From an uncultured Enterobacterales bacterium (lineage in GTDB: Bacteria > Myxococcota_A > UBA796 > CAJQPC01), in contig CAZSZE010000012.1 of assembly GCA_964610645.1 (NCBI GenBank), positions 5,095 to 69,094 on the forward strand: a stretch of DNA of 64,000 nucleotides. Direction: 5' to 3'. The position numbers and the translations under genes are program-made. Positions 2,046 through 58,277 of this stretch are shown here, one piece after another (position 1 is the stretch's first letter; each line of letters starts with the position of its first letter). Below the pieces are notes generated by a model. It saw nothing but the letters and a program-made list of their open reading frames with translations. It did no database searches and was not told the origin of the DNA.

Positions 2046-2104
2046 TTCCCCGCTCCCATGGCTGTTTGGGCCGACCTTGGGGTATTCTTACCCCGGGAGA
2101 TTCG

Positions 2105-4078: not shown

Positions 4079-5569
4079 ATGGATGCCATTGCCCCGGTGA
4101 ACTGTCAGAACCTGATTGCAGGCCATCTCGTACCAGCGATTGGTGGCGAAGTGCAGGAAAACCGCTGCCCCGCGGACACGGACCAGTTTCTGGGCACCGC
4201 GCCGGATTCCGGTTCGGAAGACGTGGAGGCGGCTGTGGCTGCAGCCAAGGCGGCCTTTCCGGACTGGGCGGACACGCCGGCCCCTACCCGGGGAGACCTG
4301 ATTCTGTCCGTGGCACGGGTCCTGCGGGCCCGCGGAGACGAGCTGGCTCAGGCCCTGTCTCTGGAGGAAGGGAAGATCTTCCCGGAGTCCAAAGGAGAGA
4401 TCCAGAAGACCCTCAAGTACCTGGAGTTTGCTGCAGGAGACGCTCGACGCATCACAGGCATGACCGCGGAAAGCGAGCTGCCCGGGACCTTTGCCTGCAC
4501 CATCTGGCGCCCCCACGGGGTGGTGGGGCTGATCACGCCCTGGAACTTCCCGGTGGCGATTCCCCTGTGGAAGATCGCCCCGGCGCTGATCACCGGAAAC
4601 ACGGTGGTGCTCAAGCCCGCCCCGGAGACCCCCCTGACGGCCCACATCATCGGGGAGATTCTGGCGGAAGCCGGCGTGCCCGAGGGCGTGGTGAACATCG
4701 TCTACGGGGATGTGGCGCCCGCCCAGGCGCTTCTCACCCACCCGGATGTGAAGGCCATTTCCTTTACCGGCTCCACCGAGGTGGGCCGCATCATCGAGCG
4801 CACCTGTGGGGAACACCACAAGCCGGTGCAGTGCGAGCTGGGCGGCAAGAACCCGATTCTGGTCCTGGACGATGCGGACCTGGACCTGGCCGCAGGTGCC
4901 ACGGCCACGGGAGCCTTTGGTTCCACGGGCCAGCGCTGCACGGCCACCTCCCGGGCGATTGTGCACCGGGATGTAGCCGATGAGTTCGTGGCCAAGGTGG
5001 TGGCCGCCGCCCAGGCGGTTCGTGCGGGTCACCCCATGGACCCCGCGACCACCATGGGGCCGTCCGTGTCCGAGCGCCAGATGGAGCAGGTTCTGCGGTA
5101 CCACGCCATTGCCGAGACCGACGGCGCCGAGCGCAAGATCGGTGGCGGACGTCTCGAGGAGGGCAACCTCTCCCGCGGCTTCTTCCCCGCCCCGTCGGTC
5201 TATGACCACGCCGCCCCCGATTCCCGCATCGCCACCGAGGAGATCTTCGGACCCTTCCTCACGGTGATCCGGGTGGACTCCCTGGAGGAGGCCATTGCCG
5301 CCGCCAATGCGGTGGATTTCGGGCTCACAAGCGCGGTCTTTACCCAGTCCCTCTCCAGCGCCTTTGCCTGCGTGAAGCACCTGGAAACAGGCATGACCCA
5401 GGTCAATGCCCCCACCATCGGCGGGGAGGGGCACCTGCCCTTTGGCGGCATCAAGGCCACCGGGGTTGGGCCCCGGGAGATGGGACCCGATGCCTGGAAA
5501 TTCTACGCCGAGCTCAAGACGGTATACATCAACCACGCAAGCGCGAAGCGCACATCCAAATTCTACTAG
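4079..5569 (+). CDS. NAD(P)-dependent aldehyde dehydrogenase family protein
   Basis: 496 aa. Motifs: ITPWNFP; catalytic Glu in ELGGKNP; catalytic Cys in GQRCTATSR; EEIFGP near the C-terminus. A GGAGAAG Shine-Dalgarno sequence lies before the ATG at 4079. Confidence 0.9.
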   Translation: MDAIAPVNCQNLIAGHLVPAIGGEVQENRCPADTDQFLGTAPDSGSEDVEAAVAAAKAAFPDWADTPAPTRGDLILSVARVLRARGDELAQALSLEEGKIFPESKGEIQKTLKYLEFAAGDARRITGMTAESELPGTFACTIWRPHGVVGLITPWNFPVAIPLWKIAPALITGNTVVLKPAPETPLTAHIIGEILAEAGVPEGVVNIVYGDVAPAQALLTHPDVKAISFTGSTEVGRIIERTCGEHHKPVQCELGGKNPILVLDDADLDLAAGATATGAFGSTGQRCTATSRAIVHRDVADEFVAKVVAAAQAVRAGHPMDPATTMGPSVSERQMEQVLRYHAIAETDGAERKIGGGRLEEGNLSRGFFPAPSVYDHAAPDSRIATEEIFGPFLTVIRVDSLEEAIAAANAVDFGLTSAVFTQSLSSAFACVKHLETGMTQVNAPTIGGEGHLPFGGIKATGVGPREMGPDAWKFYAELKTVYINHASAKRTSKFY

Positions 5570-18400: not shown

Positions 18401-18806
18401 GGTCTATCGAGGGGAGGCCCGTGTGAACCTCGGAAGAATGGAGCAGGGGGCCGATGACCTGGCCCTGGGGATCCAGGAGCTCCAGGAGGAGGGCCACATG
18501 CCAGTGCTGGGGGAAGCCTGTGCAGCCCGGGCCCGAGCACTTTCCGGGCGGGAAGACCCGGACCTCTCGTTTGGCCCGGTGTTGCAATGGATGTTTGACG
18601 AGCCGGTCTATGCGCTGCGAATGGAGTACCTCCTGGCCAGCGCTCGCTACGCCGAGTCCCTCGGCAGTTCAAACCGTGCCTTCCAGTTCTTCAAGGAAGC
18701 AGAAGGCCTGCTCCAGGAGATCCACCGAGTCATGAAGCCCGCGGATCAAGCAGCCATGTCCATCCACCCCTGGGCCACAGCGATTCGGCGGGGGTTGGGG
18801 CAGTAG
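15417..18806 (+). CDS. Ser/Thr protein kinase fused to AAA/STAND-like ATPase and TPR-like repeats
   Basis: The TTG at 15417 follows a GGGAGG Shine-Dalgarno sequence. Kinase motifs: GGMGAVF, VAVK, HRDLKSSN, DFG, SPE. A Walker A-like GSAGSGRS is present, and the long helical C-terminus has TPR-like periodicity. Confidence 0.85.
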   Translation: MAQVEFPTPETIGPYRVLRPIARGGMGAVFEAEDPANGERVAVKLLTHRGLARPRFAREYKALTRLDHKNIVRVYRYGMHEGNPYLSMEFLDGDPVQVHVHRQGPPGDATRGEEVVRVGVNVSRALAYLHERGIVHRDLKSSNIMVLPEGQVKLLDFGTARQMQGEEEITRRGEFVGTFAYASPEQITGESVDAKSDLYSLGVLLYRLSTGRRPFKADSPHELARMHVERRPVPPRKLVPMLPEALDQLILRLLEKDPADRPESATVVAEFLASQLVGIPQAERPTLGPSRLVGRTRQLEQVTELLGQESPGKVVLVVGSAGSGRSRMMRSVVAGARQKGWRCYSGRFGGERGLGVLLEVADDVQRTLGIEDETTAEFGDDIEMATGTVQEQLFGYVATSLIRCAQDEGRVLVALGDLHRASPVALDALSYTRQRCREAEVPVLFLATAPDDSDAPGTAIRKRLPEAGRVDLQPLEPEEVQKLVQSMLGGQPPSMELARSIHKVTGGMPGFVGEVVRAMVQGSLLEARKNREGIEWVDRTGGEIGIPSTARDAIRLRLDALPVEALRLLQGLAVAGGEARTKVLAHAVERPPVEVAPILQDLVSRRLLNSRDGARDEIWSFRMALTRELLMERLRDLRRDVFQRLLAQAMRGEPPGPAKIRLLAEAGWADEAIAETVEWAVPLLEWDRAEEVAPVLATAVAAVPSVKKPDRETLARLYLASARCRLVSHPGDPEAKLSIERAYALAPTEMLRGEINMHHARLQVAQGDLDGAWDLLEKARTRVARAPALLKAEVGMNLGRVQWYRGHFDEAMHWFEAGLENARRHGQGRYIARALLGRGVVHLAKGEMRAAETDLREAALLYEQAGDREGLWHAQANLCDLLRHKAAFAEGVHLLAEELPAVREGASAFRYALMLLNLAELEVEMIRLGRARQRVERVETELDLGEHLHLRAGLGLVKAKIALASGDHAEAHSLLDLLVGEAEDADLRIISSQLRVYRGEARVNLGRMEQGADDLALGIQELQEEGHMPVLGEACAARARALSGREDPDLSFGPVLQWMFDEPVYALRMEYLLASARYAESLGSSNRAFQFFKEAEGLLQEIHRVMKPADQAAMSIHPWATAIRRGLGQ

Positions 18807-19008
18807 GGAACCGGCTGCCCAGGTGGCCGTGAAGTGAGGCGTGCGAAATCACACAAGTTCCTGTGATATGCGGGGCCTTGGCGTTGTTTGGCGGTGGTAT
18901 GATCCCTACTACCGCATAGGGAAGACAGGGAGGTCCGGAAACCCCTCCCCTCATGGGCCAGGGGACCGTCGGGCCTGGGGACGAACGCAGGAATCTGGGA
19001 GGCGATTG

Positions 19009-20529
19009 ATGGGAACCGAGTTCGGGGACCTGAGCACGGGCACACCCCACTACTCGGATAACTGGGCCGAAATGAAGGCCTACGTGAGTTTCACCGAGGA
19101 GGACTCACAGAGGCTCGCGGAGGTCCTCCCACTGCTGCGCCCTCACTTCAGGCAGCTGGTGGGGCACTTCTACGAGGTGATCGCAGAGTTTCCAGGGGCA
19201 AGGAGCGTCTTGAAGGACGATTCGCAGGTGGAGCGGCTTCAAAAGACGCTTCTGAATTGGTTGGTCGAGCTCTTTGAGGGACCCCATGACCTGTCCTATT
19301 TCGAGAGCAGGCGGCGAATCGGAGAGGTGCATGTAAGGGTCGGGTTGGAAGAGAGGTACATGTTTACGGCGATGAGCGTCATTCGCAGTGACCTTCTCGA
19401 TGTGGTCGCGGAGGTTTGTTCATCGGAAAAGACGGGCGAGATCAGCCGGTCCATTCTTCGAATCACGGATCTGGATCTTGCGGCCATGACAACTTCCTAC
19501 CGGGAGACACGAGAGCTGGCCCGTCTACAGGCATTGCACTCGGAGGTGGTCCAGAATCTTCCCGCGGGTGTGATTTGCATGGATCGAGCTGGGATCGTCA
19601 CCGCGGTGACAGAGATGACCAGGTTGATCTTGGGAGTGGACGTTGAGGTCGGTGACCAGGCTTTGGAAGTGCTTCCGACAGGGCTGTTCGGTGGAACATC
19701 GCTGGCACAGCTTCTCGAAGAGGTAATCCCTTTGGGGGTCCCCAAGCACATTGGTGGCGTGACCCTGGGCACAGGACAGGAAAGACGGACACTGCGCCTG
19801 AACGTTGTGCCCATGTTCCACGGCCTGTCGGACCTCATGATCAAGGTAGAAGACATCACGGAGGAGACCCGCGCCGAGCTGGAGGCCCGTCAGTCCAAAT
19901 CCCTCGCCCAGATTGGTGCGCTCACGGCCAATCTCGCCCATGAGATTCGAAATCCTCTCGCCGGTATCTCTTCCACGGTGCAGGTGGTGATGGGGGGGTT
20001 GGCGGAGAGTGATCGGCGGCGAAGAGCGCTGGCGCTTGTCACAGAACAGGTCGCCCGGTTGGATCACCTCGTGACCGATCTGCTCCTCTTTGGTCGCGCA
20101 ACGACGCCGCGTTGTGAGCGCACCGACTTGGGTGCTCTTGTTCTTGAGGTCATCAACGACAGGGGTTTCAATTCCGATTTCTTGGAGCGGGGCACAGCTT
20201 TGGCTTGGGCGGATCCGGACTGCGTGTGCCAGGTGCTCGTGAATCTCCTGCAGAACGCACTGGCAGCAGCAGGTCCGGGAGGCAGGGTCCTGGTCCGGGT
20301 AGGCCCGGGCCCGCAATTGGAGGTGCTGGACGATGGGCCCGGCGTGGAGGCGTCCGTACGGGAGACTCTCTTCGGTGCTTTTGTCACCACCAAGGCCAGG
20401 GGTACGGGCCTGGGTCTTGCAATCAGTCGCCAGATTTCGGAAGCGATGTCGGGAACCCTTGTCCTGGTGGAGGCGCCTGAGGATTCCCTTGGGGGGGCCT
20501 GTTTTCGCCTCAGCTTTCCTTCTGCTTGA
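19009..20529 (+). CDS. Globin-coupled sensor histidine kinase (sensor globin - PAS-like - HisKA - HATPase)
   Basis: The ATG at 19009 follows a GGGAGG Shine-Dalgarno sequence. The N-terminal sensor-globin/protoglobin signature has FTEEDSQRL, GHFYEVI (distal Tyr context) and RRIGEVHVRVGL (proximal His context). The H-box is LAHEIRNPLAGI. The ATPase domain has G-boxes (DDGPGV, GTGLGLAI). Confidence 0.8.
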   Translation: MGTEFGDLSTGTPHYSDNWAEMKAYVSFTEEDSQRLAEVLPLLRPHFRQLVGHFYEVIAEFPGARSVLKDDSQVERLQKTLLNWLVELFEGPHDLSYFESRRRIGEVHVRVGLEERYMFTAMSVIRSDLLDVVAEVCSSEKTGEISRSILRITDLDLAAMTTSYRETRELARLQALHSEVVQNLPAGVICMDRAGIVTAVTEMTRLILGVDVEVGDQALEVLPTGLFGGTSLAQLLEEVIPLGVPKHIGGVTLGTGQERRTLRLNVVPMFHGLSDLMIKVEDITEETRAELEARQSKSLAQIGALTANLAHEIRNPLAGISSTVQVVMGGLAESDRRRRALALVTEQVARLDHLVTDLLLFGRATTPRCERTDLGALVLEVINDRGFNSDFLERGTALAWADPDCVCQVLVNLLQNALAAAGPGGRVLVRVGPGPQLEVLDDGPGVEASVRETLFGAFVTTKARGTGLGLAISRQISEAMSGTLVLVEAPEDSLGGACFRLSFPSA

Positions 20530-21901
20530 TCTGGATTCCGTGCTTCTCGAGGCGGTAGCGTAGGGCGTAGCGGCTGATGTCAAGCAGCTTGGCGGCTTGC
20601 ACTTGGTTGCCCTGGGTGCGGGCCAGGGCTTGTTCCAGAAGTTGGCGCTCAACCTCCTCCAGGCTCGCCCCCGCCTCCCCCAGGACCAGCAGATTTTCGG
20701 GAACCGCTTCCCCCGGCTTGGGGTTGTGCGCCCTGGCCTCCTTGGGAAGGTGTGCGACCTCAATTGTCTCGTCTGCCTCAAGGATAATGGCACGCTCGAT
20801 CACGTTTCGAAGCTCCCGCACGTTTCCGGGCCATGGGTAGCTACACATCAGGTCCATTGCTTCCACACTGACACCGGTGATTTCCCGGCGATATTCCCTG
20901 TTGAATTGCCGCACGAAGTGATCCACGAGAAGTGGGATGTCGGTTCTACGCTCTCGAAGAGGAGGCACGACCAACTCCACGACGTTCAGCCGGTAGAAGA
21001 GGTCCTGGCGAAATGTCTTCTTCTGTACCTCTTCTGCCAGGTTTCGGTTTGTGGCCGCGATCACGCATGCGTCCATCTTGATGTCGTGGACGCTTCCCAC
21101 TCGTCTAAACCGCCGATTTTCCATGATTCGAAGGAGCTTGGCCTGCACCCCGATGCCCAACTCCCCGATCTCATCGAGAAAGAGCGTTCCGCCCTTGGCG
21201 ATCTCGAAGAGACCGGGCTTGGCAGTCCTTGCATCCGTGAAGGCACCTCGCTCGTGACCAAACAGCTCCGATTCGATCAGGGTCTCGGGCAGGGCAGCAC
21301 AGTCTACCTCCACATAGAGCCCATCCGATCGGGTGCCCGAGTCATGAATGGCCTTGGCGAGAAGGTCCTTTCCGGTTCCCGTTTCTCCTTGAATCAGGAT
21401 GGCTGGGGGATCCACGTCCTTCAATCGCTCGACGAGGGAGAGGACCCTCCGAATGCCGGCGGATTCTCCGATAATGCGTCCATAGTGGCGCTCGGCGCTC
21501 TTCTTGAGGTATCGAACTTCTAGTTGCAGGCGATGGCTCTTCAGCGCCTTCTCCACGGCGAACTCCACTTCCCGAAGATCGAAGGGCTTGCTCAGGTAGG
21601 CGTGGGCGCCCAGGCGGGTGGCCTCGATGGCTGACTCAATGGCCTCGAAGGCCGTGAGGACAATGACCGGCAGGGTGCTCTCTGTCTCTCGCAGGTGGCG
21701 CAGCACATCCAGTCCGCCCATCTGTGGCATTCGCAAGTCGGTGATCAAGAGGTCTGGTGAGACCGACGTGATCTGTTCAAGGCACTCCTTTCCGTTCTCC
21801 GCTTCGAAGATGCGATAGCCCAGGCCCTCCATGTGCTCCCGAAGCGCCCACCGGATGAGCGGTTCATCGTCACAGATGAGAATGTTGACGGGAACTTCCA
21901 T
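20510..21901 (-). CDS. Sigma-54-dependent response regulator (NtrC family enhancer-binding protein)
   Basis: Probable start is MEVPVNILICDDEP (21901). It has a receiver domain, an AAA+ core with Walker A GETGTGKD and the sigma-54 contact loop GAFTDA (a GAFTGA variant), and a C-terminal Fis-type HTH (AAKLLDISRYALRYRL). The 3' end overlaps the kinase gene by 20 nt (convergent). Confidence 0.9.
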   Translation of the reverse strand: MEVPVNILICDDEPLIRWALREHMEGLGYRIFEAENGKECLEQITSVSPDLLITDLRMPQMGGLDVLRHLRETESTLPVIVLTAFEAIESAIEATRLGAHAYLSKPFDLREVEFAVEKALKSHRLQLEVRYLKKSAERHYGRIIGESAGIRRVLSLVERLKDVDPPAILIQGETGTGKDLLAKAIHDSGTRSDGLYVEVDCAALPETLIESELFGHERGAFTDARTAKPGLFEIAKGGTLFLDEIGELGIGVQAKLLRIMENRRFRRVGSVHDIKMDACVIAATNRNLAEEVQKKTFRQDLFYRLNVVELVVPPLRERRTDIPLLVDHFVRQFNREYRREITGVSVEAMDLMCSYPWPGNVRELRNVIERAIILEADETIEVAHLPKEARAHNPKPGEAVPENLLVLGEAGASLEEVERQLLEQALARTQGNQVQAAKLLDISRYALRYRLEKHGIQIKQKES

Positions 21902-22033
21902 GGGCTGGCATCCTCTCCATTCGCTCTGGAAAAGCCATTTTTCCCAGTCAATCGCTTGCAAGCGCCATGCCGGCTGAATGAAGGCGCCGAGGGGAAGCGT
22001 ACGGCGATCGGGAATGTTCGCCTATTCTGTTGT

Positions 22034-30657: not shown

Positions 30658-32373
30658 TCATTTCCCCGCTTGTTGATGGGTTTTCAGTGCATCGAGCGGA
30701 GCGTCGGCTGTCTCGTCGCTCTTCCAGACCGGAAGAAAGTCGGGCCCATCCCCGGGAGGGCTGTAGAAGTAGGGCCCCCGGTAGCTGACGGGGCGTTCGG
30801 TGAAGTTGCCGTGGGGGGGCGGGGAAGCGGTGTTCCACTCCATGGTCGTGGCGTTCCAGGGGTTCTTTCCGGCCACCTCTCCCTTCTTCAACGAAAGGAA
30901 GATGTTGATGACAAAAGGTACCTGGAAGATGAGCATCGCTGCGGTTGCCACGGTGGCAATCGCCTGGAGAGACTCAGCGTGCCCCTGGAGGAAGTCAAAG
31001 GAAGTAGGAACCGCGATGCGGCGGTGGTGCCCCAGGAGCCCCAGTTGGAACAGGGGAATGAAGATTGCGTTGAAGGAGAGAAAGGTGCCCAGAAAGTGAA
31101 TTGTGCCCAAGCGCTCGTCCAGCTTTCTCCCGAACATTTTCGGGTACCAGTGGTAGATGCCAGCGAAAGTGCCGAACAACGTGATGGGGACCAGGGTGTA
31201 GTGAAAGTGCGCCACCACGAAGTAGCTGTCGTGGATGTAGATGTCGGCGGCAGCTGATCCGTTCATGATGCCGGTCACTCCGCCGATAAAGAACAGTCCG
31301 ATGAACCCCAGGGCGAACTGCATGGCGGTGGTGAACCGAATGGACCCCTTCCACAGGGTCGCTACGAAGGCAAACATCGCGACCGCAAAGGGCACAGAGA
31401 TGAGGATTGTGGTCAGACTGAAGGGGGCGGCCAGGCGCGGGTCAATGCCACTGATGAACTGGTGATGGGCCCAGACGACGAAGCTCAAGATTCCAGCAAC
31501 GATCGTGGACCAGACCACATGACGCTGAGCGAACAGGGCCTTCCGCGAGTTCGCGCAGAGGACCTCTCCCATGATCCCAAGAGCAGGCAGGAGGAGCACG
31601 TAGACTTCCGGGTGTCCGAAGAACCAAAACAGGTGCTGAAAGAGCAGCGGGTCTCCCCCCAGGGAATTCGCATAGAAACCGGTTCCGATGGTGCGATCCA
31701 GCAGGAGCATCACCGCCCCCCCGATCAGGGGCCCGACGGAGATCATGAAGACGATGCTGGCGATGACAATCTGCCAGACCACGAACGGCCAGTCCCAGAT
31801 GCGCATTCCCTCGGCACGGAGATTGATCGAGGTGGTGATGAAGTTGATCCCCCCCATGAGAAAGGCCACCAACTCAAGGGCGACAGCCAGAATCCAGAGG
31901 TTCACGCCCCAATCCACGCCGCTGAAGATCGCGTCTGCTGCCAGTGGTGGGTAGGAAGTCCATCCCCCAGCGGCAGCACCTCCCGGAACGAAGAACGACG
32001 CGATCAAGACCACCGTGCTCAAGAAGAAGATCCAAAAGGACATCATGTTGAGCGTGGGAAACGCCATGTCGTCGGTGCCGATCATCAAGGGAATCAACAG
32101 GTTTCCGAAGCCTGCCACCAGCAGGGGCATGGCGACCCAAAAGATCATGATCGAACCATGCATCGTGACGTACGCGTTGTACTCGTGGGGAGAGATGGCC
32201 CCCACCAGGGGCAAGGGGTCGCCCGGCCACGCCAGCTGCAGTCGCATCCCGTAGGCCAGGAGGCCGCCAAGCACGGCCATGACCAAGCCTGTGAACATGT
32301 ACTGCTTGGCGATGACCTTGTGGTCCGTCGAAAAGACGTGGGTTCTAAGGAAACCTTGTGGAGCGTGGTTCAT
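30658..32373 (-). CDS. ctaD: Cytochrome c oxidase subunit I (A1-type haem-copper oxidase)
   Basis: 571 aa. Motifs: FWFFGHPEVYVLLLP (GHPEVY, the A1-type Glu/Tyr motif), WAHHQF, and HDSYFVVAHFHY (haem ligands). Confidence 0.95.
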   Translation of the reverse strand: MNHAPQGFLRTHVFSTDHKVIAKQYMFTGLVMAVLGGLLAYGMRLQLAWPGDPLPLVGAISPHEYNAYVTMHGSIMIFWVAMPLLVAGFGNLLIPLMIGTDDMAFPTLNMMSFWIFFLSTVVLIASFFVPGGAAAGGWTSYPPLAADAIFSGVDWGVNLWILAVALELVAFLMGGINFITTSINLRAEGMRIWDWPFVVWQIVIASIVFMISVGPLIGGAVMLLLDRTIGTGFYANSLGGDPLLFQHLFWFFGHPEVYVLLLPALGIMGEVLCANSRKALFAQRHVVWSTIVAGILSFVVWAHHQFISGIDPRLAAPFSLTTILISVPFAVAMFAFVATLWKGSIRFTTAMQFALGFIGLFFIGGVTGIMNGSAAADIYIHDSYFVVAHFHYTLVPITLFGTFAGIYHWYPKMFGRKLDERLGTIHFLGTFLSFNAIFIPLFQLGLLGHHRRIAVPTSFDFLQGHAESLQAIATVATAAMLIFQVPFVINIFLSLKKGEVAGKNPWNATTMEWNTASPPPHGNFTERPVSYRGPYFYSPPGDGPDFLPVWKSDETADAPLDALKTHQQAGK

Positions 32374-49526: not shown

Positions 49527-51059
49527 TTGAAGCGACCCCTTCGCATTGCGGTTGTGAGCTTGTACGCCCTGGAGAACAATGGCGTGCGGCACGTGGCTTC
49601 GAGTCTTCGACAGGGAGGCTTTGGCGTCACCGAGATCTACTTCAAGGACTGGGTGAACAACCGGTTCCCCTGGCCCGAGGAGCGAGAGGTCCAGGCGCTG
49701 TTGGACTTGCTTCGGGAGCGGCGCATCGAGGTGGTGGGACTTTCGGTGCGCGCGAGTGCATTTCACCGCTTGGCCAAGTACCTCACTGAGCGCATTCGCC
49801 ATGAGCTGGGCCTGCCCATTGTCTGGGGCGGCATGCACCCCACCTTCCTGCCGGAAGACTGCATTCCCATCGCGGACCACATCGCCATCGGGGAGACCGA
49901 CAATGCGGTGGTGGACTTCTTCGTGGCCATGGACGAGGGGGGCGACCTGCGTAGCTGCGCGAGCTTCTGGACCCGGGAAGGGGACACCGTCTACAAGAAT
50001 GGGCTGGCACGCTTGGTGGAGTTGGACGAGATTCCCTTCCGGGACTTCCACACAGGGGCAGACAAGTTCCACATCAAGGGGAACAAGGTCACAAAGGGCG
50101 ATCCCTTCATCACCAACCCCGAGTACACGCTCCTGGCCAGCCGTGGATGCCCCTTCTGGACCTGTACCTTCTGCTCGAACACCCTGACCAAGCCACTGTA
50201 CGAGGGGCTGGGCAAGAACTTCCGCATGCGCAGCGTGGAGAACCTGATCCAGGAGATGGAGTACGCGAAGAACCTGTGCAAGGACATCAAGATCGTCCGC
50301 TTTGACGACGAGGTCTTTCCCATTCGCAAGCGATGGATCGACGAGTTCTGTGAGAAGTGGCCCGCCCGCGTGGGCTTGCCCTTCGAGGTGCTGGTGGACC
50401 CGCGCATGGTGTCCTACGAGCCGCTGAAGAAGCTGAAGGGTGCGGGGCTGCGGGGCATCTGCATGGGCATCCAGGCCAACGACCGGGTGAACCAGGAGTT
50501 CTACAACCGGCACACCACCAACCAGATGATTCTCGACTGCCAGAAGGTCTTTCGGAAGGTGGGAATTGTCGCAAACCTGCAGATCATCTGGGATGACCCC
50601 TACTCCACGGAGCAGGACAAGGACGAGCTCTTTCACATGGTCATGGAGCTGGAGCGGCCCTTTGAGCTCTACCTGTTCGGGCTCACTGTCTATCCCAACA
50701 CCCACCTCGCCCGGCGGTTGTTGCGGGAGAAGTTGCTCACGGAGGACGACATCGAGGGCCTCAACACCCATGCCTTCGAGCAGTTCCGGGTGGACCTGAG
50801 CTATCCACGCCCCAAGGCGGACCAGCGGTGGCTCGCCCTCATCGTGCTGGCAAACAAGCCGTTTCTGCCCAAGAGCGCGGTCTGGAAGCTCTATGAGGAT
50901 GAGCGCTTCAAGGAGGACCCGCGTCCCCTCACGGCCATGGCCCAGGCTGCCAGCCTGGTGCGCATGGGGGTCTTTGCTGCAGGCATGGCCGCGCGAGGCG
51001 AGATGACGCCGTTGTTGATCAAGCGCTGGGTGAACCCGCGCTCTCTGGTCACCATGTGA
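49527..51059 (+). CDS. B12-binding-domain (class B) radical SAM protein with non-canonical CX4CX2C motif
   Basis: TTG start. The N-terminal Rossmann-like cobalamin-binding-type domain includes RIAVVSLYALENNGVRHVASSL...VVGLSV. The radical SAM core is LASRGCPFWTCTFCSN. 510 aa. Confidence 0.8.
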   Translation: MKRPLRIAVVSLYALENNGVRHVASSLRQGGFGVTEIYFKDWVNNRFPWPEEREVQALLDLLRERRIEVVGLSVRASAFHRLAKYLTERIRHELGLPIVWGGMHPTFLPEDCIPIADHIAIGETDNAVVDFFVAMDEGGDLRSCASFWTREGDTVYKNGLARLVELDEIPFRDFHTGADKFHIKGNKVTKGDPFITNPEYTLLASRGCPFWTCTFCSNTLTKPLYEGLGKNFRMRSVENLIQEMEYAKNLCKDIKIVRFDDEVFPIRKRWIDEFCEKWPARVGLPFEVLVDPRMVSYEPLKKLKGAGLRGICMGIQANDRVNQEFYNRHTTNQMILDCQKVFRKVGIVANLQIIWDDPYSTEQDKDELFHMVMELERPFELYLFGLTVYPNTHLARRLLREKLLTEDDIEGLNTHAFEQFRVDLSYPRPKADQRWLALIVLANKPFLPKSAVWKLYEDERFKEDPRPLTAMAQAASLVRMGVFAAGMAARGEMTPLLIKRWVNPRSLVTM

Positions 51060-52129
51060 TGCTGCCTCGCAGCATCGGGTTTGTACGGCGGGCGCGTGCG
51101 TGGCGCCACATCGCCACATCGGCCACGATGCGCCGGGTCAAGCCGGAGTGGGTTCCGCCACCCCGCGCTGGCCACTTGATCGTGAGCTACCGGTGCAACC
51201 TCAAGTGCGATGCGTGTCCCAGTTGGCAGGTGAAAGACCACGCGGACCTCACCACTGAAGAGTGGTTGCACCTTTTTGGCCAGTTGCGTTCCCTGGACCT
51301 CGTGAAGCTCCTCGGGGGGGAGCCTTTTGTCCGCAAGGACATTGTGGAGATCCTGGCCGGGGTTCGGGACATCATTGACCCCTATGTGTTGCAGCTCACC
51401 ACAAACGGAATGCTCACCAAGAGGGTCGTGGAGGCCATCCATGCGGTGGCCTGGCCCGGCTTGCAGCTGCGCATCTCCCTGGACGGAGTGGAGGAGACCC
51501 ACGACAAGATGCGCGGGGTGAAGGGGAGCTGGAAGATGGTGACCCGGACCGTTGCAGCGGCCGCGGAGCTCAAGGAGAAGTACGGCTTCACGCTGGGCAT
51601 CAACTTCGCTATCACCGACGACTCTGTGGAGGAGTTGGAGGAGATGATTGAATTTGCCGCGTCCATGGGAGCGGACCTCATCCCCGGTGTGTGTGTGGAT
51701 CCTTTCCTGGTTGGGACGGCGCCGCCCGAGGAAGAGCAGCAGCGGGTGATTCTCATTGACAACAAGGAGCGAGCCATGGCGGCCCTGGAGGATTCGCGGG
51801 TCGGCATTCGGCGGCAATTGCCTGTTCTTGATCACGTGATTTCCAGGTTCATCACGAGGACCACACTTCGGCAGCAGGTCATGGGGGAGAATTTTGGTTT
51901 TACCTGCCGGGAGCTGCGGGACCTGCTCTACATGTTGCCCAATGGAAGCGTCGTGCGCTGTGGGCTGGACCACCGGCCGATCGGGAACGTGCGAGAGCAG
52001 TCCTTTGATGACATATGGTTTGGCGAGGCAATCAAGCCCTTCCGCAAGAGCGTTGACGACTGCCCTGGCTGCATGCAGACCAGCGTGAAGATCTTAAGCC
52101 GACTTTATGGCGGGTGCTTGTTGTCTTAG
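51056..52129 (+). CDS. Radical SAM protein with Cys-containing C-terminal (SPASM/twitch-like) extension
   Basis: The GTG at 51056 (or the ATG at 51059) overlaps the upstream stop. Motifs: YRCNLKCDAC (CX3CX2C) and LLGGEPF (GGE motif). C-terminal cysteines sit in FTCRE...VVRCG...DDCPGC. Confidence 0.8.
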   Translation: MMLPRSIGFVRRARAWRHIATSATMRRVKPEWVPPPRAGHLIVSYRCNLKCDACPSWQVKDHADLTTEEWLHLFGQLRSLDLVKLLGGEPFVRKDIVEILAGVRDIIDPYVLQLTTNGMLTKRVVEAIHAVAWPGLQLRISLDGVEETHDKMRGVKGSWKMVTRTVAAAAELKEKYGFTLGINFAITDDSVEELEEMIEFAASMGADLIPGVCVDPFLVGTAPPEEEQQRVILIDNKERAMAALEDSRVGIRRQLPVLDHVISRFITRTTLRQQVMGENFGFTCRELRDLLYMLPNGSVVRCGLDHRPIGNVREQSFDDIWFGEAIKPFRKSVDDCPGCMQTSVKILSRLYGGCLLS

Positions 52130-52148: not shown

Positions 52149-52385
52149 CTACCGGTCTTCGAACGATTCACAGGCCAGACGCATGGTGGCATCGAAGCAG
52201 GCTTGTTGGTCCTGGTCCTGGGCAAGGGCAGCCCCCTCGTTGAGGCAGTCTGAGAGTTCGGTGCCCTCGCACCAGGTGTTGCAGGTCTCGGAATAGGCCA
52301 CGCAGTGATCAACGTTCTCGCCGCATCCCAGGAAGCTGGACAGCGACATCGCAACGAGAACGAAACCACCTGGCCAGGCCCGCAT
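52149..52385 (-). CDS. Small Cys-rich lipoprotein (78 aa), unknown
   Basis: The ATG at 52385 gives MRAWPGGFVLVAMSLSSFLGC (lipobox). Six further Cys occur in 52 residues (HC, TC, WC, DC, AC, AC). It is convergent with the radical SAM gene. Confidence 0.5.
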   Translation of the reverse strand: MRAWPGGFVLVAMSLSSFLGCGENVDHCVAYSETCNTWCEGTELSDCLNEGAALAQDQDQQACFDATMRLACESFEDR

Positions 52386-52519
52386 TTTCTGTCTCCTCGA
52401 GGGTTGTTCGAGCCTCCCACGCGCTGGTCTCGGGGTCAATCCCAGGCCGGGCAAACGGGCTTCAGCGTGGTTATTCCGTGGGCACGCCGAGAGGGTCTGA
52501 GCCCTCGGAGGAGCACACC

Positions 52520-53353
52520 TTGATCCTTGTCACTGGCACCAAGCGGTCGGGCACCTCCATGTGGATGCAGATTCTCGTGGCTGCCGGCCTGCCTTGGATT
52601 GGCAAGGAGTTTCTCGGGCGGTGGGACAAGTCGATCCGCGCGGCCAACCCGGAGGGGTTCTACGAGTCCCTGTTCCGCAGAGGCATCTTCTTTGCCACGA
52701 ACCCGGATCCCAGGACCGGTGCCTTTCTCTTCCCTCAGCAGTGCGAGGGTCACGCGGTCAAGGTCTTCATTCCGGGCCTTGTCCGCACCGATTACGCTTA
52801 CATCGGTCGCGTGGTGGCCACCCTTCGCCCCTGGCGGGACTACTGCAACTCCATTCAGCGCCTGTACGACATGGAGGACTCCTTCCTGGCGGACCTCCCC
52901 CCGGAAGAGGGACCCGACGGGAAAGTGGAGCAGCCTCTGGAGCGGGCGCTGCGGCAGCGACCGAAGATCCACCCGGCCCTGGAGTGGTGGTTCGAGAACT
53001 ACGACCTCATCCGGGACATTGCGACCCGGCGCTACCCGGTGAACCTGGTCAGCTATGACACGTTGCTGGCGGATCCGGGGGCTGTGATTCCCAAGGTGCT
53101 GGAGTGGATTGGGCAGGGGGATGCGGAGGCGGCCCTGGAGGTGGTGAAGCCCCGGCTGCGCACACAGGTGGACTCGGTGGCGGATGCCCCCGTGGACGAT
53201 GCAGCCGTGGAGGTCTTTGATGCGCTCCACGGGGAAATCGCCGAGAGCCAGTCCCTGTCGCGGGACCTGCTGGAGGCCATGAACGCCCTCAACAGTCGGC
53301 TGGAGGACGAGTGGTTGGGGGGCGAGCCGCGAGAGCGCACCACCGGGGGGTGA
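52520..53353 (+). CDS. Sulfotransferase-family protein (putative)
   Basis: The TTG at 52520 follows a GGAGGA Shine-Dalgarno sequence and gives (M)ILVTGTKRSGTSM, a PAPS 5'-phosphosulfate-binding-loop-like motif. LRPWRDYCNS is a 3'-phosphate-binding-motif-like segment. The track start is 52478. Confidence 0.55.
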   Translation: MILVTGTKRSGTSMWMQILVAAGLPWIGKEFLGRWDKSIRAANPEGFYESLFRRGIFFATNPDPRTGAFLFPQQCEGHAVKVFIPGLVRTDYAYIGRVVATLRPWRDYCNSIQRLYDMEDSFLADLPPEEGPDGKVEQPLERALRQRPKIHPALEWWFENYDLIRDIATRRYPVNLVSYDTLLADPGAVIPKVLEWIGQGDAEAALEVVKPRLRTQVDSVADAPVDDAAVEVFDALHGEIAESQSLSRDLLEAMNALNSRLEDEWLGGEPRERTTGG

Positions 53354-53355
53354 GA

Positions 53356-53817
53356 TCAGGAGGTGTCGAGGAGGCTGTAGATCAGCGGTTCACTCTCGCC
53401 GGCTTTCTGGCAGGAGAGGAGCACCTCGAGGGTGCAGACCATGGACGGGGACTCGTCCAGAAAGAGCACTTCGTAGCTGGAGGCAACTTCCTCGCTTGGG
53501 CGAACCCACACGCGCTGGGCGACGTTCTCGTGAGCGGTAGCGCTCACGTTCACGTCGGACCCGTTGTAATCAAATTCCAGGTCCTGGACGAAGCTGTCTG
53601 TGGAGAAGATCCATCCGGTGAGGTTGTCAACAACGGTCAGGCCCTTGTCCACGACTTGGGTGGTTCCTTCTGATTCGTCGACGCTGGTGAAGGGCATTTC
53701 ATCCCCGCGCATTTCAATCATCTGCCATTCGCCGACAATGGGATCCGAGGCGCAGCCTGGGGCCAGGCCGATGCAGAGGGTGGCAAGCATGGCAAGGGAG
53801 GGGGGGCGTGGCGTCAC
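53356..53817 (-). CDS. Lipoprotein (lipocalin-like?), unknown
   Basis: The lipobox is LATLCIGLAPGC, followed by GEWQM. The GTG at 53817 overlaps the upstream stop (GTGA); an alternative ATG lies at 53790. Confidence 0.5.
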   Translation of the reverse strand: MTPRPPSLAMLATLCIGLAPGCASDPIVGEWQMIEMRGDEMPFTSVDESEGTTQVVDKGLTVVDNLTGWIFSTDSFVQDLEFDYNGSDVNVSATAHENVAQRVWVRPSEEVASSYEVLFLDESPSMVCTLEVLLSCQKAGESEPLIYSLLDTS

Positions 53818-54365
53818 TTTCCCTTGCTCCGCTCGAAGGCCCAGTAGCCGCCTGCATTTCGATCGACGCAGTCAAGCAGAACGGGACCCTCGTGGAGCAC
53901 ACAGTCCAGGTTTAGCGTCTGTTCCGCGCTTTCCTCTGTCTCTCCCCCGTCCGAGTTCTCACAGACGCTGGTCTGGCCGTCGACGCGAATCTCGAAGATA
54001 CGCGGTTCCACCTCCACCAACGGGCCGGTCAAGGTGGCAGCGCAGCTCCTGCTGTAGAAAGTGGACTCCCCATCCTCTGTATAGGGGGAATACCCCTCGG
54101 ATTCGTCCAGGGTCAGGGTGAGGCTTGCGGTCCCGGATGCGGAGACCGCCAACGAACCGGTGATGCTGTAGGTGTAGCCCGTGTAGTAGCCATCGTAGGG
54201 GCCTCCGGTGATCGTGACGGCGGAGGTGGTGGCCAGGGGCAGGCCCACGTCGTTCATGACGGTCAGGTCCCAGTTGCCCTCGATGCCTTCGGTGTCCCCT
54301 CCACAGCCGGTGAAGCCGACGCTTAGCGCTGCGAAGGCGGGAATGAGTCGTTTGGGCGGGCGCAT
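53814..54365 (-). CDS. Lipoprotein with Tyr-rich and acidic segments, unknown
   Basis: The ATG at 54365 gives MRPPKRLIPAFAALSVGFTGC (lipobox), followed by GNWDL. It contains GGPYDGYYTGYTYS and DESEGYSPYTEDGESTFY. Confidence 0.5.
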   Translation of the reverse strand: MRPPKRLIPAFAALSVGFTGCGGDTEGIEGNWDLTVMNDVGLPLATTSAVTITGGPYDGYYTGYTYSITGSLAVSASGTASLTLTLDESEGYSPYTEDGESTFYSRSCAATLTGPLVEVEPRIFEIRVDGQTSVCENSDGGETEESAEQTLNLDCVLHEGPVLLDCVDRNAGGYWAFERSKGK

Positions 54366-54587
54366 TGGGTTGGAGAATGTACCACGGGATTGAAGGTCTC
54401 CCGGGGCGCCGGGCAACCTCTTTTGGACGGTCAGAGAGGTGGGTGGATCTGCTTGGGAAACTGTGCTAAATCACCCAACCACGTGCGGGCGGCGCCAAGA
54501 AACGGCCCTTAGGGCCTGGAATCGCGCTGCTGAACCCGAGGAGGGGCTGGAGTGGATCTTGCAACCTCCTATCCACGACTGGAGTCC

Positions 54588-55571
54588 ATGAGGTTCTTTC
54601 ACGCCCGCGCTCGTGCAGTCGCCAATGTAGGCGCTTCTGCGTGTCTGTCTCGAATGGGAATCGTCTCTCCTCCGCGATTCGCACACATTGCGCTTCGTGT
54701 TGAAGAATCGAGTGGGTCGTGGGATTCGTTGGAACTCCACCAGTGGGAAACCGTCTTCACTCGTCTCCGTGGGCTGGATGTGGCGAAGATCGTGGGGGAT
54801 GATCCTTTCGCGCGGGAGGACATCGAGGATCTCCTCTACATGCTGTTCCGGGAGGTTCGGCCGGCGTTGTTCCAGGTGGGCACGCCGGGAGGGTGGCCCA
54901 CGCGTGTGGAGTCTTTTGCGAGGCGTCTGAAGTGGCCAGGACTGCACCTACGCGTGCGAATGGAGGGTTGGCCCGGTGTAGATGCCCCAGGGAGGGAGAC
55001 GCTGGATCGCCTTGTGGCCCTCAAGAAGGGGGGCGCCCAGTTTTCCCTTGGCCTCAACTACCACCTCACGCCGGACACCCTCGAGGAGATGAAGGAGGCT
55101 GAGGCCTACTGCCAGAAGAAGAACGTCGGCTTCTTTCCGGGGATCCCCGTTCACTCCGTGGTCTTTCAATGTGGGCCGGGAGATCTGGCTGAACACACCG
55201 TGGATCCGGCTTGCGCTGCGGCTCTCTTCTCGAGCCTCAAGGTCCAGGACGACCAGCGGTATGGGCGCGTCGCAGGGAAGCTGTGGGGGAGCGCGAATCG
55301 AAAGCAGTTCGGCGGTCTCGTGGAGCAGGGGCCCAACCAGCGGTTTCGCTGCCAGGAGTTGGGGGCGCTGGTGTACGTGATGCCGGATGGCAGCGTGGTG
55401 ACTTGTGGACACCGGTTCAGGCCTCTTGGTTCACTTCTTGACCAGGATCTGGAGGCCTTGTGGGGGTCTCGGGAAGTGAAGGACGAGCGCGTTCAGATCC
55501 GAGATTGCCCCGGGTGCTTTCAAATGAGTGTGCAGCTTGCCAGCGCACTGTACGGGGGGGAGTGGTGGTAG
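54588..55571 (+). CDS. Paralog of the 51056-52129 radical SAM protein lacking the CX3CX2C cluster motif (degenerate radical SAM-like protein)
   Basis: Colinear similarity to 51056-52129 is seen in FFHARARAV vs FVRRARAW, VMPDGSVVTCG vs MLPNGSVVRCG, and RDCPGCFQMSVQLASALYGG vs DDCPGCMQTSVKILSRLYGG. However, VEESSGSWDS replaces YRCNLKCDACPSW, and GDDPF replaces GGEPF. Confidence 0.65.
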   Translation: MRFFHARARAVANVGASACLSRMGIVSPPRFAHIALRVEESSGSWDSLELHQWETVFTRLRGLDVAKIVGDDPFAREDIEDLLYMLFREVRPALFQVGTPGGWPTRVESFARRLKWPGLHLRVRMEGWPGVDAPGRETLDRLVALKKGGAQFSLGLNYHLTPDTLEEMKEAEAYCQKKNVGFFPGIPVHSVVFQCGPGDLAEHTVDPACAAALFSSLKVQDDQRYGRVAGKLWGSANRKQFGGLVEQGPNQRFRCQELGALVYVMPDGSVVTCGHRFRPLGSLLDQDLEALWGSREVKDERVQIRDCPGCFQMSVQLASALYGGEWW

Positions 55572-55669
55572 GGGGTCCTGGGTCGATTGGAGAACAGGGG
55601 CTTCTTTCCCTTGGCAGGTTTGCGGCTGCATTGGCCGGGGACCCGGCGGGATCCGGATTGAAGGAGGGG

Positions 55670-57310
55670 ATGGAGGTTCTTCGCCACGAGACGGGCGCCA
55701 ACCGGTGTGAGCTGTTTCTGGTCGACGGGCAGGGCGATGAGCTTCTCCTGGTGGAAGAGGTGTCGCGCCGGCCCCGCCACAGGGGTCCCGAGCGCCTGCA
55801 ATTGCAGGATGGTCTGGAGGGGCTGTCCGTCGAAAGGGGGGAGCCTCTTTGGGCCGATATCACACCGGTTGGGCTGGCTCTTGAGCGTGAAGACCTGGTG
55901 GAAGCCGACTTCGCAGCGGCTCTTTGTGTGCCGGTTTGCCAGGAAGGAGAGGCTGTGGGGGTCCTCCAGCTTGTCTGGCGTCGGGATCTCTGGGCCGAGG
56001 CCAGAAGGCAGATCGGCAGGTTCGTCAATTGTGCCATGCCCCTCCTGGCGGCCCAGGTGATGTCCACACAGCAACGAGGCCTGGTTGATCTGCTTCTCTC
56101 TTGTCGAAACGGGCCACCAGACCTTCAAGACCTGATCCATGCATTCAAGGACGTCAGTGGGGCTGACATCGCGACAGTTCATTTGCTGGCGCAAGATGGA
56201 GAGGGAGTCGTGGATCGGGACTCCACATCCAGCCACTTCCTCACATGCGATGGCCTGGAGGCGGGGCTACTCTCCGAGTGCCCGCGTGAAACAGGGAAAG
56301 GCCGCTGCACGGGAATCAGTGGGCCAAGGAGAAAGTGGGATCGACGCTGTCGCTCCTTGGGCCGGGAATTTCAAACGGTGCTGGAGATTCCTCTCGTAGA
56401 GGAGGGGACAGTGCTGGGCGTTGTTTTCTTGGGGTGGAAGGAGGGAGATCGCGTCTCCCCCCTCGCTGTAGCAACTCGTGTCAGTCTTCTCGCGAGGTGC
56501 GCAGCCCGGCTTGTCTCCGCTCGAAGGCTTGAGGCTGTGCCGTGCGCCCCCGCCTCTGCGATGCCGGTTGCGGAAGAAAGGCGCCTCGAAATCCGGGTTT
56601 TGGGTGGGATGAGCGTTTTCGTGGACGGACGGCTGGTTCCACCACGAGCGTTTGGGAGGTCCAAGTCCTTGGAGCTTCTTGCCCTTTTGGCAATGCGAAG
56701 AGGCCGGAGAGCAAGCCGGGAGTACCTGTGGGAGGCGCTCTGGCCGGATGCAACTCCCGAGTCCGGACTCTCTCGGCTGCATGTGACCGTGCATGCTCTG
56801 AGAAAGGTGATTGAGCCGCAACGCGAAACCCGAGGCTGGCATCACATTCTGGAGGAACAAGGCAGCTTCTGGTTGCCCATGGAGACCGTGAGCCTGGACC
56901 TGGTTGTTTTTGAGGATCTTCTCTCCAGCGCCCGTCGAAAGAGGGGCACCGGGGAGTCACTTGCGGAGTGTCTGGACCTCGCTGACAGTGCAATCAGGCT
57001 TTGTCACGGCGAGCTGCTGGGGGATCGGTTGGAGTGGGAGTGGGCTGATCCCTGTAGGGTGGCCTTTTCCGACAAGCTGCGCGACGCATTTGGATTTGCG
57101 GTTGCCTCTGCCATGCAGCTGGATCGACCCGACCTTGCAGTCTCCTATCTTCGAGTGGCCGTACAGGCGCAGCCATTTCGCGAGGACTATCGAGAAGAAC
57201 TGGTTCGGATTCTGCTGAAAGACGAGAGAACCAGCGAGGCAAACCGGGTGTTGGGTTCCTGGAGGGAATTCAACAAGATGGAAGAAGTCTCTATGCTCAT
57301 CGATGGGTGA
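55670..57310 (+). CDS. GAF-GAF-wHTH-BTAD (SARP/AfsR-DnrI-like) transcriptional regulator
   Basis: The ATG at 55670 follows an AAGGAGGGG Shine-Dalgarno sequence; upstream GTG starts around 55562 cannot be excluded. It has two GAF-like regions. The OmpR-type wHTH is LEIRVLGGMSVFVDGRLV...LELLALLAM...REYLWEALWPD. The BTAD-like helical domain includes FEDLLSSA...QPFREDYREELVRILL. Confidence 0.7.
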   Translation: MEVLRHETGANRCELFLVDGQGDELLLVEEVSRRPRHRGPERLQLQDGLEGLSVERGEPLWADITPVGLALEREDLVEADFAAALCVPVCQEGEAVGVLQLVWRRDLWAEARRQIGRFVNCAMPLLAAQVMSTQQRGLVDLLLSCRNGPPDLQDLIHAFKDVSGADIATVHLLAQDGEGVVDRDSTSSHFLTCDGLEAGLLSECPRETGKGRCTGISGPRRKWDRRCRSLGREFQTVLEIPLVEEGTVLGVVFLGWKEGDRVSPLAVATRVSLLARCAARLVSARRLEAVPCAPASAMPVAEERRLEIRVLGGMSVFVDGRLVPPRAFGRSKSLELLALLAMRRGRRASREYLWEALWPDATPESGLSRLHVTVHALRKVIEPQRETRGWHHILEEQGSFWLPMETVSLDLVVFEDLLSSARRKRGTGESLAECLDLADSAIRLCHGELLGDRLEWEWADPCRVAFSDKLRDAFGFAVASAMQLDRPDLAVSYLRVAVQAQPFREDYREELVRILLKDERTSEANRVLGSWREFNKMEEVSMLIDG

Positions 57311-57384: not shown

Positions 57385-57401
57385 GCAAGGGGAGGTTGCC
57401 G

Positions 57402-58277
57402 ATGTTCCAGACCTCATCTTCCGGGCGGGCAGCGGGCTGGAGCGCTTGGGCTCTTCTCTTGGGGGCGTCCTTGTGGTCTGGCATCGCCTTGGCCGCTGAC
57501 GCAGAACAGGAGTTCGCGATTCGTTGTGCGGCCTGTCACTCCATCGGGGAGGGCCGGCGAGTAGGACCCGACCTGCAGGGGGTTCTGGATCGTCGCACTG
57601 AGGATTGGGCTGTCGCTTTTGTTCAAGACTCCGCAAAGGTGGTCGCGTCGGGGGATGCCGAGGCGGTGGCCTTGTTCACCGAATTTGCCCAGATTCCGAT
57701 GCCGCCTCAGGATTTGTCCCGAGAGGTGATTCTGGACCTTCTTGAGTTGACCCGGGTGGCGAAAGACCCTGGGAGCACTCCGGATGCCCCCGCTGCCGAG
57801 GAAGCTGTAGCCGTGATGGGCGATGCTGATCGGGGACAGGACTTGTTTCAGGGAATTCAGCGATTCGAAAAGAAAGGCCCGAGCTGCATTTCTTGTCACA
57901 GCGTCCGAAATGACGCAGTCATCAGTGGGGGCTTGTTGGGGCCGGAGCTGACCGAGACGCTCAAGGGGATGGATGCTCCCGCTGCCGGCCAGGCCAAGGT
58001 GGGAGGGTTTGTGCAGGCACAGCCGATCATGCAGCGGGCCTATGTGGACCACGCTCCCACAGACCAGGAGGTCGCGGATCTGGCTGCCTTTCTGGTCCGA
58101 ATCAACAAGGACCAGGCTCGCCATATGCCTGGTGACACCGGGCGAAAGCTGGCGATGAGTGGGGCGGTGGGGACGGTTCTCCTTCTGGGCTTGTACAGCG
58201 CCATTTGGAGAAAGCGAAAGAGATTCAGCGTGAACGAGAGCATCTACGATCGACAGATCAAGTCATCTGACCTCTAA
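57402..58277 (+). CDS. Membrane-anchored dihaem c-type cytochrome (NarC-like position upstream of narG)
   Basis: The ATG at 57402 gives MFQTSSSGRAAGWSAWALLLGASLWSGIALA (signal peptide). Haem motifs are CAACHS and CISCHS. The C-terminal TM helix is AMSGAVGTVLLLGLYSAIW. Confidence 0.7.
   Translation: MFQTSSSGRAAGWSAWALLLGASLWSGIALAADAEQEFAIRCAACHSIGEGRRVGPDLQGVLDRRTEDWAVAFVQDSAKVVASGDAEAVALFTEFAQIPMPPQDLSREVILDLLELTRVAKDPGSTPDAPAAEEAVAVMGDADRGQDLFQGIQRFEKKGPSCISCHSVRNDAVISGGLLGPELTETLKGMDAPAAGQAKVGGFVQAQPIMQRAYVDHAPTDQEVADLAAFLVRINKDQARHMPGDTGRKLAMSGAVGTVLLLGLYSAIWRKRKRFSVNESIYDRQIKSSDL

Follow-up and report, generated by a model that had tools for sequence, protein, structure and literature searches.

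A rare family of pseudo-radical-SAM/Twitch proteins, very probably SAM-dead and maintained by selection

Introduction

Look-alikes of radical S-adenosylmethionine (SAM) enzymes that lack the SAM-cleaving cluster are recognised in curated databases. The family TIGR04347 ('pseudo-SAM/SPASM protein') comprises haloarchaeal full-length radical SAM/SPASM homologs that are curated as having no SAM-radical function, and a similar 'pseudo-rSAM' family occurs in the GG-Bacteroidales peptide system. In the GeoRSP pair, a radical SAM/SPASM protein (TIGR04303) is accompanied by a related SPASM-domain protein (TIGR04304) whose name does not class it as a radical SAM enzyme. A search of the literature on pseudo-radical-SAM proteins returned nothing relevant and no paper characterising one, and in the literature searched no function has been demonstrated for any of the database families. 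Here we describe gene B, which encodes a protein of this kind in a 64,000-nucleotide stretch of DNA (hereafter the window; contig CAZSZE010000012.1, positions 5,095 to 69,094) of an uncultured bacterium placed in Myxococcota_A, and compare it with gene A, a homolog located upstream in the window, and with related loci (L numbers) and proteins (P numbers) found elsewhere. B is very probably a SAM-dead, selectively maintained protein of the radical SAM/Twitch fold, and it represents a new, rare family within a kind that is already known mostly from databases.

51056..52129, + strand: gene A, radical SAM enzyme of the active type carrying a SPASM/Twitch domain, 357 amino acids (aa), the homolog with which B was compared
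54588..55571, + strand: gene B, pseudo-radical-SAM/Twitch protein, 327 aa from its ATG (BLASTP, Pfam, alignments, AlphaFold2)

B resembles the members of TIGR04347 in being a full-length homolog without apparent SAM-radical function. It did not match this family at E<=0.1, and A reached 63.6 bits at a cut-off of 525 bits; the two groups also differ in taxa (haloarchaeal versus bacterial, Myxococcota-like contigs) and in subfamily. The GeoRSP arrangement is similar to the succession of A and B in locus L001. However, TIGR04304 (cut-off 300 bits) did not match B and gave 19.3 bits with its relative P0013, and the pairing of A with B is not conserved beyond one lineage. Searched against NCBIfam as a whole, B matched no family. 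BtrN, SkfB, BlsE and MoaA resemble B in that a Twitch domain comes after a partial TIM barrel, but they are active enzymes with a CX3CX2C motif and SAM-binding motifs, whereas B has neither.

The nearest named NCBIfam relatives of A are the PTO1314 family, NirJ, AhbD and PqqE, all of them far below their cut-offs (AhbD 76 versus 500). Gms, an AhbD-like SPASM/Twitch enzyme that cross-links lipids, clusters with the B12-radical SAM protein Gmm and with Tes and acts in the modification of membrane-spanning lipids in archaea and bacteria (PMC11214058). A is paired with a B12-radical SAM gene in the manner of gms-gmm, and as in the bacterial gms-tes clusters, the B orthologs of L009 and L010 adjoin a Tes/TrsS-like enzyme; GDGT-MAS was among the structural and sequence matches. 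Proteins count as Gms if they have 400 aa or more, carry a COG4001 domain at the N-terminus, closely resemble Tg-Gms and reach E<=1e-80 (PMC11214058). We considered and rejected A as a bacterial Gms, as it has 357 aa and its cysteine motif begins at residue 47, too early for an N-terminal domain of 100 aa to precede it. The connection to lipid modification is suggestive as an analogy and does not amount to membership.

Results

Gene B is homologous to gene A and lacks its catalytic motifs

In BLASTP, residues 4-324 of B (54588-55568) aligned with residues 9-353 of A (51056-52126) in 353 columns, with 30% identity, a score of 146 bits and E=1e-45. As this alignment is colinear from the N- to the C-terminus and has an E-value of 1e-45, the similarity is far beyond chance. 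A contains the motifs CNLKCDAC, GGEP and TTNG as well as a C-terminal YGGC. Where A reads YRCNLKCDACPSW, B reads VE-----ESSGSWD, which corresponds to a deletion of about ten residues and leaves none of the three cysteines. Furthermore, B has GDDP where A has GGEP and TPG in place of TNG, and both B and the orthologs of its crown clade (see below) have lost the HDxxRG segment. Since GGE, TNG and HDxxRG are all lost, B appears to lack the contacts to SAM as well as the cluster. The Pfam search is in line with this: A contains Radical_SAM (61.5 bits) and SPASM (39.2 bits), and the sole match in B was SPASM (PF13186) at residues 255-310, which is marginal with 22.4 bits versus a cut-off of 21.5. 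Radical_SAM (PF04055, gathering score 29.5 bits) had no match in B at E<=0.1. Hence none of the sequence features that define the superfamily was found in B, neither CX3CX2C nor a PF04055 score nor the GGE/SAM-contact motifs.

The reading frame of B is open and full length. Its ATG at 54588 agrees with the start of the ortholog in L001, although a GTG at 54552 with GGAGG upstream is another possible start, and its GC content at third and second codon positions (0.71 versus 0.46) is the normal coding signature for this genome.

These results bear out every sequence statement of the original prediction, which had been made from the letters of the window, and part of its interpretation. It described B as colinear with the product of 51056-52129 from end to end, open and full length, devoid of all three SAM-cluster cysteines and with GDD in place of GGE, each of which was recovered here. 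It also listed shared ARA-, PNGSVV- and DCPGC-type segments, and we found PNGSVVRCG/PDGSVVTCG and DCPGCMQTSV...YGG/DCPGCFQMSV...YGG in the two proteins. It had further named short chance matches as an alternative source of the similarity; the pairwise alignment spans nearly the whole lengths.

Gene B retains the fold, four Twitch cysteines and a candidate pocket

An AlphaFold2 model of B based on an alignment of 12 sequences (pLDDT 81.5, pTM 0.83) has six beta-alpha units and, after them, a small C-terminal domain of the beta/alpha type. The best Foldseek matches in the PDB were SkfB, BlsE, TigE, PqqE, BtrN, MoaA and EpeE (E 1e-8 to 1e-5); all of these top matches are radical SAM enzymes, and the partial (beta/alpha)6 TIM barrel typical of them is present in the model. 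The fold of B is accordingly modelled as a radical SAM core with a Twitch/SPASM domain.

B contains eight cysteines (C19, C175, C195, C209, C255, C273, C307 and C310). The last four, spaced C-x17-C-x33-C-x2-C, occur without exception in the 18 family members that were aligned, whether active or inactive, and in a profile search of PDB sequences they aligned one-to-one with the Twitch-region cysteines of BtrN (4m7t), whose auxiliary [4Fe-4S] ligands we take to be C169, C187, C232 and C235. The seven-cysteine motif of a full SPASM domain with two auxiliary clusters is absent from B. Because only C-x12-G-x4-C and C-x2-C are present, the domain is Twitch-like and not a full SPASM domain, and the C-terminal YGGC of the A clade is changed to YGG[EDHN]W in the B clade. 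As four invariant cysteines align with those of BtrN, B most likely still binds one auxiliary-type [4Fe-4S] cluster. Outside the Twitch domain only C175 is kept among orthologs, and no conserved substitute for the cysteine triad was found in B. The invariant residues of the crown clade (T99-P100, H120/R122/W128, N157/H159 and F182-V188) lie close together where strands beta3 to beta6 have their C-terminal ends, which suggests that a pocket has been retained at the former active site.

Orthologs of gene B are intact and under constraint

Orthologs were sought by word index among 5.8 billion proteins and, exhaustively, with an HMMER profile among 1.84 billion representatives. The former returned P0001-P0005 at 100%, 72%, 49%, 42% and 42% identity, the latter added P0012-P0015, and scans of public contigs added L008, L018, L020 and L021. 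The family is thus rare: the 1.8 billion representative proteins include just a handful of its clusters. Intact orthologs that lack the triad come from at least four lineages besides that of the window. All orthologs that were found are intact open reading frames (ORFs), with full-length frames at 40-72% identity to B in several lineages and intact copies in five further contexts (L001-L004, L009, L010, L018 and, on the branch of P0013, L011). A crown group formed by B, P0002, the L018 protein, P0003 and P0004 lacks the cysteine-triad loop and has G[DST]D in place of GGE (GDD, GSD or GTD) and TPG in place of TNG. P0005 and P0015 are fragments that group with the crown; they do not cover the N-terminal motifs.

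The ratio of non-synonymous to synonymous substitution rates (dN/dS, NG86 method) was determined for genes of the window and of L001, whose B ortholog is 72% identical. It was 0.11 for B, 0.10 for A, 0.15 for the regulator gene downstream of B, 0.13 for the adjacent cytochrome c gene and 0.04 for narG; these ratios are approximate, as dS of 1.4-1.9 is near saturation. For the pairs at 44-46% identity (L008 versus L009 or L010), dN/dS is unreliable. Since the value of about 0.11 is similar to those of A, the regulator and cytochrome c, B is under constraint like its neighbours.

Gene B belongs to an old subfamily with a parallel case in a sister family

Neighbour-joining trees (200 bootstraps) recovered a B superclade, comprising B, P0002, L018/P0005, P0003, P0004, P0015, P0012, P0013 and P0014, with 100% support, and within it the triad-less crown with 93.5%. 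The A clade (A, its ortholog in L001, P0006, P0007 and P0020) likewise received 100%, whereas its position as sister to the B superclade received 26%. These trees rule out that B arose as a recent tandem duplicate of A. As judged from the sequences, B is a member of an old, separate subfamily of the same family of enzymes of about 350 aa. P0020, a relative in the A clade, is labelled Myxococcota.

Two members of the B superclade differ from the crown in their motifs. P0012, encoded in L008, L020 and L021, keeps the triad as RCEPSCARC but already has GGD and NTTG, and P0013 has lost the triad and kept GGE. Together with the crown, they look like a series of stepwise degeneration, in which P0012 may represent a step between active enzymes and the dead form. 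P0013 (L011 10001-10939) is one of the triad-less proteins annotated as ordinary radical SAM enzymes, having been named 'MoaA/NifB/PqqE/SkfB family radical SAM enzyme' by the Joint Genome Institute.

L008 2-1084, L020 1031-2137, L021 3857-4963: gene of the stem member P0012

A second triad-less radical SAM/Twitch clade was found in a sister family that is characterised by the C-terminal motif CxGCWxxCE...YSGD. It consists of P0028, P0030, P0035, P0038, P0039, P0043 and P0052 (bootstrap 100%), and the split between the two families is supported by 99.5%. Its members have lost the cysteine-triad loop, GGE and TNG as well as the third cysteine of CWxxC. Given this topology, the same losses arose independently in the second clade. 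The gene order at these loci is PepN - pseudo gene - Ser/Thr kinase - MazG - MiaB-like, with the kinase present in three of the four. The pseudo gene evolves much faster than its neighbours (38-46% versus 62-81% identity).

L014 1664-2716, L015 2072-3103, L016 1816-2805, L017 6001-7086: genes of the second pseudo clade

Against this background, two terms of the original prediction have to be narrowed. B had been called a paralog of the neighbouring enzyme; the two are homologous, but they belong to different old subfamilies with a sister support of 26%. It had also been called cluster-less, which holds for the SAM-cleaving cluster and probably not for the auxiliary site, where the four BtrN-aligned Twitch cysteines are invariant. 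Its view that B is a maintained non-catalytic relative and no decaying pseudogene agrees with the intact orthologs and the dN/dS of about 0.11, as does its mention of retained C-terminal auxiliary-type cysteines with the 18 aligned sequences. Of the other two observations that it said would speak against it, frameshifts or stops were seen in none of the orthologs found, and an alternative cysteine triad was not detected, only C175 and the Twitch cysteines being conserved.

Gene B lies upstream of a regulator gene and a nitrate reductase operon

The genes around A and B in the window are as follows.

49527..51059, + strand: gene for a B12-binding radical SAM protein of 510 aa; 4 nt at its stop are shared with the start of A
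52149..54416: block between A and B, absent from L001
52478-53353, + strand: sulfotransferase-like gene
52149-52454, 53356-53817 and 53814-54416, - strand: three small lipoprotein-like ORFs
55565..57310, + strand: regulator with GAF, winged-helix (Trans_reg_C) and BTAD (SARP-type) domains
57396..58277, + strand: cytochrome c in which two such domains are present; lies between the regulator gene and narG, conserved in L001
58302-61916 and 61954-63510, + strand: narG and narH, respiratory nitrate reductase, downstream of B and the regulator gene as in L001

The GTG start of the regulator gene at 55565 (or 55562) overlaps the stop codon of B (55569-55571). The 7-nt overlap is also present in the gene call of L001, and the calls of L002 and L003 start the regulator 15 nt past B. 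This suggests that B and the regulator are translationally coupled. L001, a contig of a metagenome-assembled genome (MAG), has the order A, a gap of 188 nt, B, the GAF-winged-helix-BTAD regulator, cytochrome c and narGHJI; L002-L004 carry the same B gene with identical DNA. The window shares the block of B, regulator, cytochrome c and narGHJI with L001, and the genes upstream differ. No counterparts of the genes in 52149-54416 were found in the loci compared, L001 included, and this block looks like an insertion into the unit of A and B. One of its small lipoprotein-like ORFs is cysteine-rich and has a lipobox-like LGC. The alignment of the window with L001 showed no conserved operator or promoter block upstream of B, and a sigma-70 scan of the same region returned 0 sites. 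The two-domain cytochrome c (57396-58277) directly upstream of narGHJI is an unusual companion for a NarG-type operon.

Gene B and gene A are found in different company elsewhere

A lies directly upstream of B in L001-L004 and 2.4 kb from it in the window, and L009, L010 and L018 have a B-clade gene but no A. In L009 and L010, where the orthologs are 42% identical, B overlaps or abuts a gene for a membrane protein of 132-140 aa and one for a radical SAM enzyme with a hemerythrin domain and a zinc ribbon. The membrane protein matched no family. The best NCBIfam matches of the enzyme, which combines hemerythrin with an HMPTM-type zinc ribbon, were TrsS and Tes, both far below the cut-offs (Tes 105 versus 450), and neither of the two proteins has a homolog in the window. 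A USP-like gene lies upstream in L010.

L009 1958-2356, L010 1191-3226: membrane protein/hemerythrin radical SAM operon with B orthologs

The 49% identical ortholog in L018 follows a gene of the COX1 family (a weak match) with an overlap of 4 nt and is convergent with genes for a CmlS/QhpG-like flavoenzyme and a methyltransferase. The gene of the stem member P0012 is divergent from genes for a CmlS/QhpG-like flavoenzyme and two HGD-D (2-hydroxyacyl-CoA dehydratase-type) proteins, and that of P0013 lies 3.4 kb from another radical SAM/SPASM gene. We also considered a common small partner protein and rejected it: the 130-aa gene following P0013 is unrelated to the membrane protein of 132-140 aa that follows the orthologs in L009 and L010.

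A-clade genes that are found without B are always joined to a B12-radical SAM gene, a coupling present in L005, L006 and L022. The overlap is 4 nt in L022, as in the window, whereas a gap of 4 nt separates the pair in L005 and L006. The arrangement is seen in three lineages.

Window 49527-52129, L005 7392-10008, L022 5228-7845: pair of B12-radical SAM gene and A

The pair often occurs near genes for MopE/FG-GAP secreted proteins. The best named relatives of the B12 enzyme are lipid-related, namely HpnJ and a ladderane-type lipid B12/radical SAM protein. In L006, a tandem array (5192-5402; 52-nt unit, 4.1 copies, 84% matches) lies directly downstream of the A-clade gene and extends to the contig end.

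Discussion

Possible functions of gene B

Our preferred reading, which we put forward tentatively and at somewhat less than even confidence, is that B, without catalysis of its own, is a subunit that binds an Fe-S cluster or a ligand and cooperates with partners encoded in its operon. The loss of the three-cysteine loop, the changes of GGE to GDD and of TNG to TPG and the deletion of HDxxRG would mean that B no longer cleaves SAM. The partial TIM barrel and a complete four-cysteine Twitch site of the BtrN type have been kept, and B probably holds one auxiliary-type [4Fe-4S] cluster and a conserved pocket in place of the active site. In this state, it could serve as a binding or electron-relay subunit for the proteins encoded beside it. 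In two independent lineages of the crown, the neighbour is an active radical SAM enzyme, which would be A in the window and L001 and the Tes/TrsS-like enzyme in L009 and L010. It is because of these neighbours and of the enzyme/pseudo-enzyme pairs in databases that we favour a subunit. A radical SAM gene adjoins B in L001-L004, L009 and L010 and lies 3.4 kb from P0013. Fe-S binding, the lack of SAM binding and any partnership are predictions.

Several observations weigh against a partnership of this kind. In the window, A and B are 2.4 kb apart with four ORFs in between, three of which are on the other strand, and the gene to which B appears coupled is that of the regulator, not A. The 5.6 kb of L018 contain no radical SAM gene near the B ortholog, and no B was found within 8 kb of the A-clade gene of L022, a Myxococcota MAG. 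The second pseudo clade has no adjacent active paralog. No one partner is universal across the B loci, and the evidence from synteny comes from few contigs, most of them short.

The main rival is that B acts as a sensor or co-regulator, which we regard as unlikely though worth serious consideration. The Twitch cluster or the pocket would report a redox or metabolite signal to the GAF-SARP regulator that controls cytochrome c-narGHJI; its [4Fe-4S] cluster would be labile to oxygen or nitric oxide (NO) and signal to the product of the overlapping gene. The overlap of the stop of B with the start of the regulator in the window and L001 is consistent with this, as is the conservation of the block from B to narGHJI despite different upstream genes. 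Other B orthologs lie beside genes related to oxygen or respiration (the hemerythrin-domain enzyme, the USP-like gene and the COX1-family protein), and a Ser/Thr kinase follows the gene of the independent pseudo clade in three of four loci. However, the link to the regulator is confined to one lineage (the window and its 72% identical relative), and no regulator adjoins B in L009, L010 or L018. The adjacency to the kinase is part of a conserved housekeeping syntenic block and may reflect shared ancestry, and both the lability of the cluster and a contact of B with the regulator are conjecture. A broader version, in which at least two independent losses of the triad, with the Twitch [4Fe-4S] cluster kept, turned radical SAM enzymes into Fe-S sensor modules wired to signalling proteins (the GAF-SARP regulator, which would switch on cytochrome c-narGHJI, and the Ser/Thr kinase), is a long shot. 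If it were true, sensors of redox state, oxygen or NO that evolved from the radical SAM scaffold would form a new class.

It is rather improbable that B is an enzyme whose chemistry does not depend on SAM. The barrel pocket and the Twitch cluster would in that case act together, for example as in a redox or dehydratase-type Fe-S enzyme, on a substrate of the same class as those of the catalytic relatives. The strong conservation of the barrel top and the Twitch cysteines could be explained in this way, and so could the clade-specific invariants W128, H159, GFFPG and GPN and the occurrence of B alone in varied, biosynthetic-looking contexts such as L018 with its CmlS/QhpG-like flavoenzyme and methyltransferase. 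Yet a purely binding role fits the same conservation equally well, we found no precedent for such an enzyme, and the sequence by itself points to no catalytic residues.

The idea that B rebuilds a SAM-cleaving cluster from other cysteines has very little to recommend it. The four further cysteines C19, C175, C195 and C209 could provide ligands, and the stem member P0012 still has CX3CX2C, but only C175 is conserved among orthologs, GGE, TNG and HDxxRG are lost too, and Pfam found no Radical_SAM match at E<=0.1. That B is a decaying pseudogene, or similar to A by chance, is scarcely credible: all catalytic motifs are missing and B evolves somewhat faster than NarG, but the E-value of 1e-45, the intact ORFs at 40-72% identity, the dN/dS of about 0.11, the normal codon-position GC and the confident fold speak against it, and we reject the pseudogene on the orthologs and the dN/dS.

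The finding is solid but modest on present evidence. The locus is useful in that it combines a rare family, a stem member that still bears the triad and a parallel loss in a sister family. If B turned out to work as an accessory Fe-S subunit or as a sensor, it would show how radical SAM scaffolds are reused and would call for caution in counting such genes as enzymes in metabolic reconstructions.

Other genes of the window

The surroundings are rich in signalling genes, which is in keeping with a Myxococcota-like organism. Those of the window at 15417-21961 and 30658-32373 encode a Ser/Thr kinase-AAA-TPR protein, a protoglobin-histidine kinase and a sigma-54 activator. A COX1 oxidase subunit is among the window genes noted together with these regions. 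MopE/FG-GAP proteins are encoded at 48-3997.

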